DNA from: an uncultured cyanobacterium
GTDB taxonomy: Bacteria; Cyanobacteriota; Cyanobacteriia; Cyanobacteriales; Cyanobacteriaceae
Direction: 5' to 3'
Assembly: GCA_963710605.1 (NCBI GenBank)
Contig: CAVQBA010000004.1
Coordinates: 1,216,001 to 1,280,000 of the forward strand
DNA: 64,000 nucleotides
Made by a program: the position numbers and the translations under genes. Below the pieces are notes generated by a model that saw nothing but the letters and a program-made list of their open reading frames with translations, searched no databases and was not told the DNA's origin. Below, in pieces: positions 38,847-45,084 of the stretch. Within the stretch, counting starts at the first letter, position 1, and each line of letters opens with the position of its first letter.

Positions 38847-39743
38847 CTAACATCCCGCATCTCCTACTACATCAAATTGCTGAGTTTTATCTTCTATTAT
38901 CACAGTTATTGTACCATTAGGAATATTAACCGATTCAATTTCACCTTTAGCACCCAAAGTCACATCGACTTCCACCAATATTCGATCGTCTTCTGTAGTA
39001 AAAACTTGATTTGTTTTTTGTCCGTAAAATTCTTCTCCTTGAGATGATTTTCTGATCAGTTTAGTTAACTTACCATCAAAAGACATAAATGCGTCAGTAT
39101 CTCCTTGAGTATCTTCTATTCCATTAAAGAATAAAAATCCTCTTTGATTAGTTTGGGCTTTTTTATCTAAACTCATACCACAACCGCCTCCACCCGCATC
39201 GAATAATTCATCGGTGGTGAATCTCGTAATTTCGATCGATGAAGAAGTTGTTTTATCTTCAAGAGTAACATTAGGTATTTCGGTTAGTAGTGTGTCACCA
39301 CAATAAATCATGACGGAGCGATATTCATTGATTGTGGTGGGCATGGTGTAATTCACTTTTGTCGGCGTAATTACTTGAATAGCAACGCCTTCTGGGGGAA
39401 TAGGTGAAAAAGAAATACGTTGTGCTGGTGGTTGTCGTCGATCGAGTATTCCGGGTTTCCATTCAACTTGATAGTTAGGAGTCGGCATATCCACTTCTCC
39501 TGATATATTTAAACGCAATTCACCATCCCCAACATTATCTATCCAAGCTTGCCAGTTACGACTTTGGGTTACTGTACAAGAAGAATTATTATTGATAGTT
39601 TGCACAATTTCGTTATTAGAAGATGTTAAGTTTTCCTCTGTTTTAGCACCTGTTATTTGTGAATTAGGATTATCACATCCAGCCATTACCAAAGAGAGAA
39701 AAATTAGGCAAGTTAAAAAGTAAGAATTAATTTTTTTAAACAC
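38847..39743 (-). CDS. Hypothetical lipoprotein
   Basis: Signal peptide with lipobox 'VMAG-C'. Confidence 0.7.
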   Translation of the reverse strand: MFKKINSYFLTCLIFLSLVMAGCDNPNSQITGAKTEENLTSSNNEIVQTINNNSSCTVTQSRNWQAWIDNVGDGELRLNISGEVDMPTPNYQVEWKPGILDRRQPPAQRISFSPIPPEGVAIQVITPTKVNYTMPTTINEYRSVMIYCGDTLLTEIPNVTLEDKTTSSSIEITRFTTDELFDAGGGGCGMSLDKKAQTNQRGFLFFNGIEDTQGDTDAFMSFDGKLTKLIRKSSQGEEFYGQKTNQVFTTEDDRILVEVDVTLGAKGEIESVNIPNGTITVIIEDKTQQFDVVGDAGC

Positions 39744-39956
39744 GATCGACTCTTAAGATTGATATTTCTTTTGTTTAGATAACTTTTTATCATGATGTCG
39801 GCAGAATACCCTTATGTCCTTGACTTAGGGATGAATGCCGACAAATCAATTGAGGGCGATTAGCCCATCCCCTCATTAAAAAAAATAAGTGAGAAAATTC
39901 AATTTTGTCACTTATAATTAAAATGATTAAAAAATACTGAATAATCAGTAATTCTC

Positions 39957-42900
39957 ATGATATTAGCTTTTTGCTACAAATTAAAACCTAGTTTGTCCCA
40001 ACAAAGGACGATCGCTCATTGGATGGCAATGTTGAGGTCGCACTACAACTATTGCCTAGCCGATCGAATTGGTAGTTATGAAGAAGTTCGATCGCCTAAA
40101 CTAGGAGAATATTGCGACTTGCGAACTAAGGCAGTTTGTTCTCCCTTAAGCTGTGCCATCTCTAAAAATTCTAATATGGGCGAACCATTTAAAGGTAATG
40201 GTAAAAGACGTAATGCCTATGAAATGCAATCTTCAGAACTACCTATTCTTAAAAAGTCTCGCCCGTGGTATGCCACCATTAGCTCAACTGTCCTTCAACA
40301 AAATCTTCGACGATTGAATGATGCCTTTGAGGGGTTTTTCAATGGTAAAGGCTATCCTGCTTTTAAAAGGCGTAATAAGTTTAAAAGTTTTTCCTATGCC
40401 CCAAACCAAGTTCAGTTTAATCCGCAAAAAGTCTATTTGCCCAAAATAGGATGGATGCGGTTTTTCAAGTCTAGGGCTTTTCCTAATGGGTTCACTCCCA
40501 AGACTGTTACCGTTAGGCAAAAAGCCGACGGGTACTATATATCTGTACGCTTGGAAGACAAAACTGTCCCTGACTTTGAACCAATGGAAATCGATCGAGT
40601 AAAATCGATTGTCGGAATTGACTTAGGAGCAAGACCTCATAAGTTATGTTGTTTGTCCACAGGAGAAAATATCCCTAATCCCATGTTTGCCAAACAATCT
40701 AGTAAACGTCGAACATTACTACACCGTAGGGCTAGTCGTAAAGTGAAAGGCTCAAAAAATCAAAAAAAAGCCTACCAAAAATTAAGCAAATTTGAACTTG
40801 GAGTTATAAATCAAAGAAATGATTACCAGTGGAAAGTGGGACACCAGCTAGTACGCAAGTTTGATGCGATCGTCATGGAAGCCTTGCAAATTCAAAATAT
40901 GACTCGTCGATGCAAACCAAAACTAGATGAGCAAGGGAAATACCTTAAAAATGGACAATCGGCTAAACGGGCATTAAGCCGCTTAATCCAAGATTGTAGT
41001 TGGGAAAAACTAAAGGGCAAAATACGTCAAGTCGCTGAAAAGTGTGGGCGTATTTTTCTAGAAGTAGAACCTAAATTTTCCTCTCAAACCTGTTCGTCTT
41101 GTGGGTTCAAAAGTAAAGAAAACAGAAAGAAAGAATCATTTTTGTGCCTAAACTGTGGAATGTCTCATGATGCGGATACCAATGCGTCGCTCGTATTAGC
41201 AACTCGTGGAATTGAAAAACTTGGTATTAGTGAAAATACCCTATGGGGGGTCACCCCAAAAGTTACGGCTACCTCTGAAACCTCAGAGGTGACTAGAAAT
41301 AGTCAGGAGATCAAATCAGTGGCGTTGGCGACTGAGCCTAGCAACCCTCTACAACGTGCGATTCGTTCTTACGAAACCTTTATCTAAAGGTGGATGTGAG
41401 GCTTTCAGTTAAGTAACTCCCCCTGAGTTGTGCTCGCACTTTAATCCTTAACTGAATTAATAACTTGTAATTCATGGAGGTGAATCAGTATCCTAGAACA
41501 TAAGTCCTCCCGACCTTGTGCGGGTTGAAAAGCATACAGCGTCCCCACTCGTGAGGGTGGTGAGAAGTTTCCCCAATTTCTGAGGTGACAACTCAGAGGT
41601 TGAAGCGGGAGTAAAAGCGGATAGTAGCGATAATTGCTGAAAACGCCTCACCGCAAGCAAGTGTTTTATAAGCGACCCAGGACTGAGATAATCTCAGGGA
41701 AATGGACATCGTGGGGTAGATAATCAAAGTATCTATTGAAGCGTCTCAAAGGGTTAGCAAGGGATATAAGCTAGTGGATAATGCCACACCTTGCATTCCG
41801 AAATAACGGAAGAATAATAATATGTGGTTCTGTTGTAAAGTCACATCGCACAATTAATTCAAATAGGCGTAAAGGTACACCCTAAAGAACACAAATCAAC
41901 TGGTTGCACCGTCGCAACCAGCAATGGAATACAGGAACGAAGTAAACCAATATAAGCCCCAGAATAACTGGTAGGTCGTCAAACCGTATGCTTAAGTTGG
42001 GAAAGGATGGGTCAAGAAGCTAATGCCTAGCTCGAAAACACGAGCATTGCTGGAAAAGAGAAGGGGTAACGCCCAGGATACGCAGACGTGACTCGCAATA
42101 TATCAAATGCTAAAGGTGTCAGTAGTAGTAAATATGTCTAATACAGAATCGAATCAGAATACTGTGGAATGGGAAAATATCGATTGGCGTAAAGTCGAAA
42201 GATATGTCTTTAAGCTACAAAAACGCATTTACGCTGCTTCACGTCGTGGTGAAGTTAAGAAAGTACGCAAACTCCAAAGAACCCTTATGAGGTCTTGGTC
42301 TAATAAGGTACTTTCGGTCAGAAAGGTAACACAGGATAACAGAGGTAAGAAGACGGCAGGAGTGGATGGAGCAAAAGCACTTTCCCCAGAAGAACGTATG
42401 AACCTCGTAGGTCAACTAAAAATCACAGGAAAAAGTAAACCAACTCGGAGAGTATGGATACCGAAACAAAATAGTGGTGAAAGAAGACCATTGGGAATAC
42501 CAACTATATATGACCGAGCCTTACAAAACACTGTTAAATCAGCGATTGAGCCAGAATGGGAAGCTCGTTTTGAGTCAAACAGCTATGGTTTTAGACCAGG
42601 ACGGTCAGTCCACGATGCTATCAAGCAAATTAAAAATGCAATTCAAAAGAAACCAAAATACGTTTTGGATGCCGATATTGCAAAATGTTTTGATAAAATC
42701 AACCACTTATCCTTACTTAAGAAGCTCGGATACACGGGTAAAATCAGGCAACAAATTAAAGCCTGGTTAAAATCTGGGGTCATTGACCAAAAGGTTTTTA
42801 CTACTACGTCTGAGGGTACACCGCAAGGTGGGGTTATTAGCCCTTTACTCGCTAATATTGCCCTCCACGGGATAGAAATTATGTTAAAGGAGTTTGTCAA

Positions 42901-44130
42901 AACATTAGACTTGCGAAGAAAAGACTATCCAAGCAGTCAAATAAGTTGGCAGAAGAAAGTTCGTTCGCTGTCTTTTATAAGATACGCAGATGACTTTTTA
43001 CTAATACATGAGGACTTAAAAGTGGTCCACAGATGCAAAGAATTAATCTCTGAATGGTTATATGACATTGGACTAGAACTAAAACCATCAAAAACCAGAA
43101 TCACTCATATACTCAAACCAGAATTGAGCGAGGATAGAAAAGCTGGGTTTGATTTCCTCGGACATCATATACAGCAATATCCAATAAGTAAGTACCAAAG
43201 TGCGAAGCTAAATGGAAAACCACTAGGCTTTAGGACTCTCATAACACCAAGTAAGGAAGCACGTTTAAAGCATCAGAAAGATATGAGGGACATTGTGAGA
43301 AAACATAAAAACTCTCACCAAGCAAAATTAATCAAGAAGTTAAATGAGTGTATAAGAGGTTGGTGTAATTACTATGTCAACTCAGACGCTCAAACTGTTG
43401 GTGAATTTTCCAGACAAGACCACCTTGTATATCAAAAACTTAGAACTTGGGGCAAACGGAGGTGTAAAGGAAGCCTCAATAAAGCACATAAGAAATACTG
43501 GTGCAAAGTAGGTAATAATAACTGGGTATTTGCAGTCAATCAAGAGACGAAGAATCCCTTGAGGTTACTAACACATAGTGAATATAAATGTAGTAGTACA
43601 AACTATGTGAAAGTTAAAGATGACGTAAGCCCCTTCAACGGTGACTTGGTTTACTGGAGTACACGGATGGGCAAAAGCCCAGAGATGCCAAATCGAAAAG
43701 CGAAATTGCTTAAGATTCAAAAAGGGGTCTGCCCTTGGTGTCAACTTAGATTTCGTGAAGAAGATGTATTAGAAGTTGACCACATTCAAGCTCGTGCCTT
43801 GGGAGGAAAGGACACATACAAAAATCTTCAACTACTTCACGGTCATTGCCACGATGAAAAAACTGCCTTGGATATGAAGGAAATTTGGAAGCACAAGACT
43901 CTCAGTGATTTTTTAAAATCTAATAATATATTGGAAAATTACAATTGGTACTGGGATGAAAACGATATTCTAATAACCTTCAAGAAAATAAAGTGAAGTT
44001 CAATAACAAGATAGATATGTTGAGTAGCCGTGTGAAGCGAAAGTTTCACGCACGGTTTCGGAGGAGAGGAGTAGAGTGGAAACACTCACTTCGACTCTAA
44101 CTATCGTTGTTTGAGTGGATGGACGGCTGA
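39957..44130 (+). CDS. tnpB: RNA-guided endonuclease TnpB, join(39957..41355,44102..44130), 475 aa after splicing
   Basis: HTH N-terminus, RuvC D (GIDLG), E (VMEAL), D (DADTNAS), Zn finger CSSC/CLNC; spliced C-terminus EPSNPLQLSLFEWMDG*. Confidence 0.88.
41356..44101 (+). mobile_element. Group IIB self-splicing intron (2746 nt)
   Basis: 5' GTGCG; DV AGCCGTGTGAAGCGAAAGTTTCACGCACGGTT (44026-44057); DVI with bulged A at -8 and 3' AAC; EBS1 GTTGTA (41832-37) pairs IBS1 TACAAC; EBS2 AGGGTT (41750-55) pairs IBS2 AACCCT. Confidence 0.92.
42107..43996 (+). CDS. ltrA: Group II intron-encoded reverse transcriptase/maturase with HNH endonuclease
   Basis: RT N-domain 'WRKVERYVFKLQKRIY', 'RPLGIPT', 'GTPQGGVISPLLANIAL', YADD, X domain 'RGWCNYY', HNH 'CPWC...EVDHI...NLQLLHGHCH'. 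Confidence 0.93.
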   Translation: MLKVSVVVNMSNTESNQNTVEWENIDWRKVERYVFKLQKRIYAASRRGEVKKVRKLQRTLMRSWSNKVLSVRKVTQDNRGKKTAGVDGAKALSPEERMNLVGQLKITGKSKPTRRVWIPKQNSGERRPLGIPTIYDRALQNTVKSAIEPEWEARFESNSYGFRPGRSVHDAIKQIKNAIQKKPKYVLDADIAKCFDKINHLSLLKKLGYTGKIRQQIKAWLKSGVIDQKVFTTTSEGTPQGGVISPLLANIALHGIEIMLKEFVKTLDLRRKDYPSSQISWQKKVRSLSFIRYADDFLLIHEDLKVVHRCKELISEWLYDIGLELKPSKTRITHILKPELSEDRKAGFDFLGHHIQQYPISKYQSAKLNGKPLGFRTLITPSKEARLKHQKDMRDIVRKHKNSHQAKLIKKLNECIRGWCNYYVNSDAQTVGEFSRQDHLVYQKLRTWGKRRCKGSLNKAHKKYWCKVGNNNWVFAVNQETKNPLRLLTHSEYKCSSTNYVKVKDDVSPFNGDLVYWSTRMGKSPEMPNRKAKLLKIQKGVCPWCQLRFREEDVLEVDHIQARALGGKDTYKNLQLLHGHCHDEKTALDMKEIWKHKTLSDFLKSNNILENYNWYWDENDILITFKKIK

Positions 44131-44349
44131 GGTAATTGGCTGTCAGAATTCCCATTGTCTAAGGCGATAGCCGTACGGTGGGGTTCTTCAACTAATCATA
44201 ATATTTACAAGACACGATCGATTTAATAATTGTTCCGAAAGCTTAATTAATTCTCTTTTTCTCATCGTATTACTTTTATTGATTACATTAAATTGTTCTG
44301 TAATCTTTCTTTAAGAGATGGTAGTATTTTTAGAATATCGATCGTTTTA

Positions 44350-45084
44350 CTATTTTGCTCTTACTAAACTTGGTTTTTGTGTCCAAAAATGTAACAAGTT
44401 TTCGCTAATTAACTCAGGTTGAAAATAATGAAAAAAGTGATCTCCAGTTGGGCATTGCCACAACCTATCTTCTGGTTTGAGTTTTGATTGCCATTTTTGC
44501 ATTTCACTCCAAGGTACAATTTTATCTTCAATACATCCTGCAATCATTAAGGGGCATTGAATAAAATCGATCGCACTTTTGGAATTACTTTGGTATAGTG
44601 AATGATTAGATAAAGAATAAGGGATTGCTTTTTCTAAAATTTTGATAAATGCAAGACGATAATGATGGCTATGACAACCAAATAAATATTTAGCTACATG
44701 GGCTAAAACTATCTCTTGACTACAATGCCAATTGTTTCGCCAAAAATAATAATAACTAAGCCAATCTACGGCTAAATTTGTACCTACTCCTAAAAGAGTT
44801 AGCGACTTTACTTTTTCGGGATATTTTTGGGCATAAAGTAAGCCTAGCAAACCACAAGTACTATGACCGACTAAATGAATTGGTTTATTTAATAAACTCA
44901 AATAATCATTTAATAAATAAACCGCTTGCTCAATTGATGTGCCTTCGTCTTCTGTTTGTTCATATTCCCAATGAGCAATATCGACAGATTTTGATAAATA
45001 TTGAATTGCCGGTAAATTAAAGCGACGCAAGTAAGGATTTGTGTTTAACCAAAGAACTTCTGGATTTTTGAACATCTTTCTCAA
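44350..45084 (-). CDS. Alpha/beta hydrolase resembling iron-stress protein IsiC
   Basis: 'HLVGHSTCG' nucleophile motif, 'GDHFFHYF'; N-terminus 'VLWLNT.P..RRFN' recalls the cyanobacterial IsiC family (from memory). Confidence 0.7.
   Translation of the reverse strand: MRKMFKNPEVLWLNTNPYLRRFNLPAIQYLSKSVDIAHWEYEQTEDEGTSIEQAVYLLNDYLSLLNKPIHLVGHSTCGLLGLLYAQKYPEKVKSLTLLGVGTNLAVDWLSYYYFWRNNWHCSQEIVLAHVAKYLFGCHSHHYRLAFIKILEKAIPYSLSNHSLYQSNSKSAIDFIQCPLMIAGCIEDKIVPWSEMQKWQSKLKPEDRLWQCPTGDHFFHYFQPELISENLLHFWTQKPSLVRAK

Follow-up and report, generated by a model that had tools for sequence, protein, structure and literature searches.

A group II intron probably retrohomed to its cognate site in the putative omega-RNA scaffold of a cyanobacterial tnpB-only IS200/IS605 element

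We analyzed a 64,000-nucleotide stretch of DNA from an uncultured cyanobacterium (assembly GCA_963710605.1, contig CAVQBA010000004.1, positions 1,216,001 to 1,280,000; hereafter the window), in which a group II intron of 2,749 nt (41356-44104, + strand) interrupts a tnpB-only insertion sequence (IS) of the IS200/IS605 family. We consider it highly probable that this mobile intron retrohomed into the element at its cognate site, located in a hairpin of the putative omega-RNA (guide-RNA) scaffold, and that splicing would restore both TnpB and the hairpin.

The pairing between the intron and its 5' exon is central to this proposal. The last 13 nt of the exon consist of intron-binding site (IBS) 2, AACCCT (41343-41348), a spacer C at 41349, and IBS1, TACAAC (41350-41355). 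IBS2 is complementary to exon-binding site (EBS) 2, AGGGTT (41750-41755), located in unpaired sequence on the 5' side of a conserved stem, and IBS1 to EBS1, GTTGTA (41832-41837), in the loop of a hairpin (41821-41846) with the stem ATGTG (41821-41825) and CACAT (41842-41846). An earlier note on this DNA, made from its letters, had claimed complementarity at 12 of 12 positions and had placed EBS1 in this loop; all 12 pairs are indeed Watson-Crick, and the hairpin was found as described. In a consensus fold of the EBS region, the EBS1 stem shows compensatory changes at all 8 of its 8 pairs, and 15 of 22 predicted pairs do so overall (15 of the 16 sequences were folded; L189 was omitted, being identical to L196 in this region). 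By chance, the 751-nt 5' part of the ribozyme should contain a given 6-mer about 0.18 times and both 6-mers in the right order about 0.02 times.

Relatives of the ribozyme allow this pairing to be examined at homologous positions. The 751-nt 5' part was compared by blastn (E ≤ 1e-20) with 400 genomes of the same order and the own genome (401 in total). Matches were obtained in 19 of the 401, own genome included, and 12 loci align from intron position 1 with 71-76% identity; a metagenome search yielded six further relatives, including L232 at 87% identity. The pairing test comprised 10 of the 13 introns then known, that is, the window intron and nine of the 12 relatives. L169 was left out with its 1-nt exon, as were L185, which shares the site of L084, and L171, whose ribozyme diverges after position 419. 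In the EBS1 loop columns, 4 of 10 introns pair with their own exon at 6 of 6 positions by Watson-Crick pairs, compared with 0 of 88 non-cognate combinations; in the EBS2 columns the figures are 4 of 10 and 0 of 90. When G-U pairs are allowed, EBS1 reaches 6 of 10 (cognate) versus 7 of 88 (non-cognate), and EBS2 6 of 10 versus 9 of 90. The covariation that the earlier note had proposed to look for is thus present. Only close relatives were used because a global alignment of the EBS region between this clade and distant relatives is positionally unreliable. A scan of 73 introns for exact EBS1 6-mers, with 32 matches against about 16 expected, was rejected as too crude to place EBS1 by itself. 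The EBS2 stretch and the EBS1 hairpin account for most of the differences between the nearest ribozyme, that of L232, and the window intron. Because all 12 pairs form and the same columns covary with each relative's own exon, the tnpB tail is the predicted cognate homing site of the intron.

The insertion point also has a defined position in RNA structure. In IS200/IS605 TnpB systems, the guide (omega) RNA is encoded at the 3' end of tnpB and the right end of the element. A conserved fold, which starts some 130 nt upstream of the insertion site and reaches the right end, has 46 predicted pairs here, 26 of them compensatory among 11 homologues. We therefore read the region from the tnpB tail to the right end as a putative omega-RNA scaffold and infer that it is expressed. 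Its 5' part (41226-41355, + strand; start approximate) overlaps the tnpB tail and contains hairpins that covary in the homologues, and its 3' part (44105-44192, + strand), likewise with covarying structure, runs through the terminal hairpin to the right end. The intron sits in the apical loop of the hairpin CCCTC.ACAA[C...CG]TTGT..GAG.GG, whose 5' strand consists of IBS2 and IBS1. Under this reading, the intron would split the scaffold 88 nt before the right end. Rfam gave no family on the tnpB tail and right-end RNA, either at the gathering cut-off or at E ≤ 1.

The intron itself appears intact. It begins with GTGCG at 41356, in agreement with the GUGYG consensus, and its relatives begin likewise. 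At its 3' end, Rfam RF00029 matches domain V, the catalytic domain, followed by domain VI (44023-44101, + strand; model positions 1-77 of 77; 53 bits versus a cut-off of 40). The terminus ...CTAACTAT, followed by the exon base C, agrees with the AY rule, the reading frame, and the empty homologous sites; the limits 41356-44104 are adopted because the uninterrupted homologous tails and the reading frame fix the 3' end. An uninterrupted intron-encoded protein (IEP) of 629 aa (42107-43996, + strand), in domain IV, carries the reverse transcriptase (RT), maturase, and endonuclease domains RVT_N, RVT_1, GIIM, and HNH, all above their Pfam cut-offs, together with the YADD motif. Its nearest solved protein is chain C of PDB 6ME0, the maturase/RT of T. 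elongatus (E 2.9e-88, residues 11-586). We take the 6ME0 intron to be of class IIB (chloroplast-like), and the IIB-like label of the window intron follows from the similarity of the IEP to 6ME0 and from this assumed class. On the 5' ribozyme domains, Rfam gave no family at the gathering cut-off or at E ≤ 1. All parts for standard retrohoming are present and uninterrupted, and the intron is apparently intact in this sense.

The host element (39793-44192, + strand) measures 4,400 bp with the intron and 1,651 bp without it. Its left end adjoins TTATCA (39787-39792, + strand), a candidate target-adjacent motif that is also present in L065, L066, and L076; similarity among these three and the window element starts straight after it. 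The right end, ...GGGGTTCTTCAAC at 44192, was placed by comparison with homologues. Exon 1 of tnpB (39957-41355, + strand) contains codons 1-466 and one further base, its open reading frame (ORF; 39957-41387) running on into the intron, and exon 2 (44105-44130, + strand; ...P LFEWMDG stop) is in a frame that agrees with the homologues. Splicing in silico gives an in-frame TnpB of 474 aa that ends in PLQPLFEWMDG and is one codon shorter than the homologues. The protein matches the Pfam domains HTH_OrfB_IS605, OrfB_IS605, and Cas12f1-like TNB and contains the candidate catalytic and zinc motifs IDLG, MEAL, CSSCG, CLNCG, and HDADTNAS. No tnpA was found inside 39793-44192. The RuvC-like OrfB_IS605 core with a zinc-ribbon/TNB domain, a conserved, covarying right-end hairpin and terminus, and ends shared with homologues characterize the element as tnpB-only IS200/IS605 (IS1341-like). 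It is flanked on the minus strand by a 298-aa ORF without a Pfam match (38847-39743) and by an alpha/beta-hydrolase ORF (44350-45084).

Endonuclease-bearing group II introns move as ribonucleoproteins (RNPs) that base-pair with the target, reverse-splice into the top strand, cleave the bottom strand, and carry out target-primed reverse transcription. We propose that a chloroplast-like (IIB-type) mobile intron retrohomed in this way into the sense strand of a resident tnpB-only IS200/IS605 element. The intron RNP would have recognized the DNA by EBS2/EBS1 pairing with AACCCT-C-TACAAC and reverse-spliced after the C at 41355, and the HNH and RT activities of the IEP would have completed the integration, as for such introns generally. 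Since it lies on the sense strand of tnpB, the intron is presumably co-transcribed with it. Splicing would restore the 474-aa in-frame TnpB and the scaffold hairpin, so both the TnpB C-terminus and the guide RNA would depend on splicing. We infer that the intron still splices and moves.

Several observations weigh against this proposal. EBS1 of L084 forms only 3 of 6 Watson-Crick pairs with its present exon (5 of 6 with G-U pairs), and that of L232 about 4 of 6, as read by eye; the clade therefore includes copies at non-cognate sites. The hairpin that bears the insertion site is mostly invariant, with variation at 3 of 9 pairs, so that this helix rests mainly on conservation, and its loop in the window element is 3 nt shorter than in the homologues. 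In addition, the own genome contains no second copy of the intron and thus gives no sign of recent mobility.

Uninterrupted homologues support the view that the intron entered an existing element. A TnpB protein search covered 40 relatives and the own genome and gave matches at E ≤ 1e-80 in 12 of the 41 genomes. All 11 homologous tnpB tails examined in the related genomes are uninterrupted and read AACCCTCTACAA-CTTTCG-TTGTTTGAGTGG, the wider context at these 11 loci being ...GAGCCTA(G/C)CAACCCTCTACAA-CTTTCG-TTGTTTGAGTGGATG... Among the 11 homologues, which come from several genera, the target stretch GAGCCTAGCAACCCT..CAA hardly varies, although the TnpB homologues are only 44-70% identical in their last 120 residues.

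The suggestion of the earlier note that the intron is the later arrival is supported, but the lack of CGATCG on which it partly drew says little by itself. As the note had stated from inspection by eye, the intron contains no CGATCG (5.9 expected), compared with five in the 1,399 nt of the tnpB 5' exon (3.57 per kb) and 2.15 per kb in the genome. However, the other 21 IEP-like segments of the genome also lack it (0 in 15,669 nt), and CGATCG is likewise absent from 353 of 20,000 random 2,749-nt windows and from 62 of 629 GC-matched ones. The depletion is shared by intron sequence throughout this genome, and we rejected it as a mark of an intron younger than its IS. The window tnpB is unusually rich in CGATCG (24 other TnpB segments contain 14 in 22,386 nt, 0.63 per kb), in keeping with a long-resident IS that the intron invaded later. 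The intron was also said to be richer in GC than its host; this holds against the genome (40.1% versus 33.4%) but not against the IS, because the tnpB exon itself has 40.5%.

One alternative places the specialization in the lineage rather than in this intron. In this explanation, the family has repeatedly retargeted its EBS to conserved IS200/IS605 tnpB or right-end motifs and to the RT genes of other introns, and the window intron represents one switch, to a new site within this module. The genome collection contains 80 IEP loci, of which L084 is the best match (75% identity; others ≤58%). Of 83 intron 5' ends located by profile searches, 79 fall within the 80 genome loci, and 21 of these 79 introns lie in same-strand tnpB. 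Seventeen are backed by blastx, with a TnpB match that adjoins the intron on its own strand (within 200 nt, E ≤ 1e-3), and four were assigned by motif only (L090, L092, L102, L106); distant or antisense TnpB matches in the same flanks number only three. Of the 80 metagenome loci, 66 yielded intron 5' ends, 71 in total, of which 25 are in tnpB (16 by blastx, 9 by motif only). Motifs were used where blastx with 15 TnpB paralogues of the own genome had overlooked short or divergent exons, as in the four loci named and several metagenome loci.

The insertion sites recur. Within tnpB they are the codons for YRIYP (N-terminal), TSQxC (zinc finger), and DxNAAxN (RuvC-III), a C-terminal GLGxF, and a LAAKLG site. 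At the right end the recurrent site lies 11 nt before the terminus, between the GGG that follows the hairpin and AGGATGTCAAT; 3' exons with right-end termini resembling AGGATGTCAAT were found in L189, L192, and L198. On a FastTree of the IEP N-terminus, with 140 rows from 163 introns (10 lacked an IEP match and 13 an exon sequence), the target classes are strongly clustered, requiring 30 changes compared with 68.9 in shuffles. YRIYP occupies nine rows with two changes, TSQxC a six-row clade (support 100), and GLGxF five of five rows with one change. The window intron belongs to a 16-row clade (support 99) that includes six right-end-region rows, two possible ones, one in tnpB coding sequence, and seven others. 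The earlier note would have regarded the insertion as accidental if homologous copies sat mostly in unrelated genes. This is not the case, because many relatives occupy IS200/IS605 tnpB or right-end sequence.

Other points speak against targeting at the level of the lineage. The target labels were assigned by the analyst from exon sequence and blastx, and near-duplicates are common to both sets (L116/L242, L110/L235, L138/L246, L106/L234, L084/L193). Only in L171 and L189 could a tnpB be verified upstream of the right-end-like hairpin. L192 and L198 are intergenic, near housekeeping genes, with no tnpB found, and L183 is downstream of a DUF309 gene; these three sites may be solo or miniature IS derivatives. 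Survivorship could yield the same picture, with insertions persisting where they are harmless. On balance, we consider this explanation about as probable as its negation.

A broader form of the same idea is a cyanobacterial radiation of RT-HNH introns that lives mainly on the tnpB/guide-RNA module, with sub-lineages each fixed on a different conserved motif: YRIYP, TSQxC, DxNAAxN, GLGxF, a position at the right-end hairpin that lies 11 nt before the terminus, and, for the intron in this window, an internal hairpin of the scaffold. We offer this tentatively and rate its chances somewhat below even. If it were true, the production of TnpB guide RNA would depend on splicing wherever an intron lies within the scaffold or separates the right-end hairpin from the cleavage site, and right-end insertions could also block excision by TnpA. 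This would amount to a three-way parasite conflict parallel to that of the group I IStron, reached independently by a retroelement.

The earlier note had proposed that the intron is specialized on the conserved tail of a multicopy tnpB transposon, which would provide renewable targets and transport between genomes. The conserved part of this proposal stands: the target is nearly invariant at the nucleotide level across genera, and the tail of L066 carries a perfect 13/13 target, which is empty. Transport is also conceivable, because the right-end hairpin and terminus downstream of the intron are intact and the own genome has 12 Y1 TnpA matches, seven of them strong, that might act in trans and mobilize the IS with the intron as cargo. 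However, the IS is not multicopy here. At the DNA level tnpB is single-copy in the own assembly (84.9% complete, seven contigs), the only other matches being two 84-nt pieces of 73-74% identity, and the best protein paralogue is 36% identical. The intron is likewise single-copy at the DNA level; further genomic matches extend over no more than about 630 nt, at 66-91% identity. The 12-base target has one perfect occurrence in the genome, which is occupied, and one-mismatch sites number 15 against about 17 expected by chance. The intron therefore has one target in this genome, already filled, and in the count of occupied and empty copies that the note had suggested, this single genomic target stands against homologous tails of which 0 of 11 are occupied. 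Neither the 80 genome loci, nor the 12 close relatives of the ribozyme (from 400 genomes of the order), nor the 80 metagenome loci include a second intron at exactly this site. Because the IS is single-copy and the sole perfect target is occupied, a renewable target is not borne out at this site, and we regard the proposal as unlikely. A plasmid search returned 55 records with related introns, most of them 60-80% identical; none covers 80% of the query, so there is no lead on a donor.

Chance or ectopic insertion by non-specific retrotransposition, with a coincidental EBS/IBS match, would suit the varied sites of the nearest relatives (L165 antisense in an ISL3 transposase gene, L170 downstream of a dinB-like gene, L232 and L194 in unknown sequence), but is very improbable given 12 of 12 Watson-Crick pairs at structurally homologous EBS positions, the failure of all 88 (EBS1) and 90 (EBS2) non-cognate combinations to reach 6 of 6, the sense-strand orientation, and the restored reading frame.

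Further introns were observed in the same genome. A second, degenerate group II intron (C5:124870-127216, - strand), whose IEP fragment has four stops, starts right after ...GACGGGAGTATGTCA, 1-2 nt before the right-end terminus of an IS605 (tnpB C5:127314-128519, tnpA C5:128605-128967). A 7-nt EBS2-like ACTCCCG in it matches the exon, and an exact EBS1 was looked for there and not found. Clusters of nested or decayed introns occur at C2:3818-9598 and C5:11000-30000. The tnpB at C2:3818 is interrupted at its TSQTC codons by an intron, which in turn harbors the start of a further one (C2:7219), and at C5:26622, an intron in the DIAKCFD RT motif of another IEP forms a twintron.

Among the relatives, L138 (near-identical to L246) has two introns in one tnpB element, at the TSQVC codons and at the right-end hairpin (3' exon ...GGAGTATGTCAA). 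L102 is a 2.6-kb contig, labelled as a Planctomycetia metagenome-assembled genome, with a cyanobacterial-type intron in the N-terminus of tnpB, and may be a binning error. A tight clade (8 of 8 rows, support 100) always follows the repeated motif ...ATTGCAGGTCGCTA (L094, L105, L115, L117, L119, L121, L125, L238, L264). Another (L099, L220, L226, L227, L229, L230) is inserted in coding sequence at ...DKGFSPAMVGQ. The clades of L199, L254, L258, L261, L263, L094_2412, and L120 target the RT motifs RPLGIPTM|YDR and YGFRPG of other group II introns and are dedicated twintron formers.

Group II introns in IS605 elements have been known since 2016, and the window element is ordinary in its mechanism. 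Kapitonov, Makarova, and Koonin (PMC4810608) reported RT-HNH group II introns inserted in IS605 transposons of two cyanobacteria, of which PCC 7107 is named. Those cases resemble the window intron in their cyanobacterial host, RT and HNH-bearing IEP, and insertion in the IS200/IS605 family; they are presented in one sentence and Fig. S9, and the relevant passages give no site, EBS/IBS pairing, guide-RNA context, or count. More generally, bacterial group II introns home to intergenic regions or other mobile elements (PMC4181065), and RmInt1 of Sinorhizobium meliloti homes into an insertion sequence (PMC4181065, PMC4615759). The window intron shares with RmInt1 a natural homing site within another mobile element of bacteria, but differs in the HNH domain of its IEP and in the host IS family, and the RmInt1 case is not known to involve a guide RNA. 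The Thermosynechococcus group II RNP (6ME0) is also cyanobacterial and contains the closest solved IEP, with a chain of 562 residues compared with 629 here, a likeness known from the protein sequences. In the full texts retrieved by a literature search, no systematic account of group II introns in tnpB/guide-RNA regions appeared apart from the 2016 sentence, and the passages of broad intron surveys that search terms retrieved do not treat tnpB sites. The family-wide, motif-specific association with tnpB and a putative guide RNA thus appears under-described.

TnpB and its guide RNA gave rise to Cas12, and interference with them by other selfish elements is a current question. The locus is a clean natural construct in this respect, with a seemingly intact intron in the loop of a putative scaffold hairpin and uninterrupted homologues for comparison, and could serve to ask whether group II splicing gates guide-RNA and TnpB function. 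About a quarter to a third of the relatives lie in tnpB, at motifs specific to their clades, and provide natural examples of EBS retargeting.

The closest parallel is the IStron, a chimera of a group I intron with an IS200/IS605 or IS607 element (bioRxiv 10.1101/2023.11.20.567912; PMC13565253), whose conflict has been described only recently. We rejected an IStron identity for the window element because Rfam gives only a group II signal, and no group I signal, in 41300-44250 and the intron has its own RT. Both systems link a self-splicing intron to a tnpB element and combine splicing and guide-RNA production on the same transcript. As described in these sources, the IStron contains a group I ribozyme and moves as a unit by TnpA, whereas the window intron is a group II retroelement with its own RT and a guest in the IS. 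Unlike in the IStron, the splice site here would lie inside the putative scaffold itself, about 88 nt before the right end.

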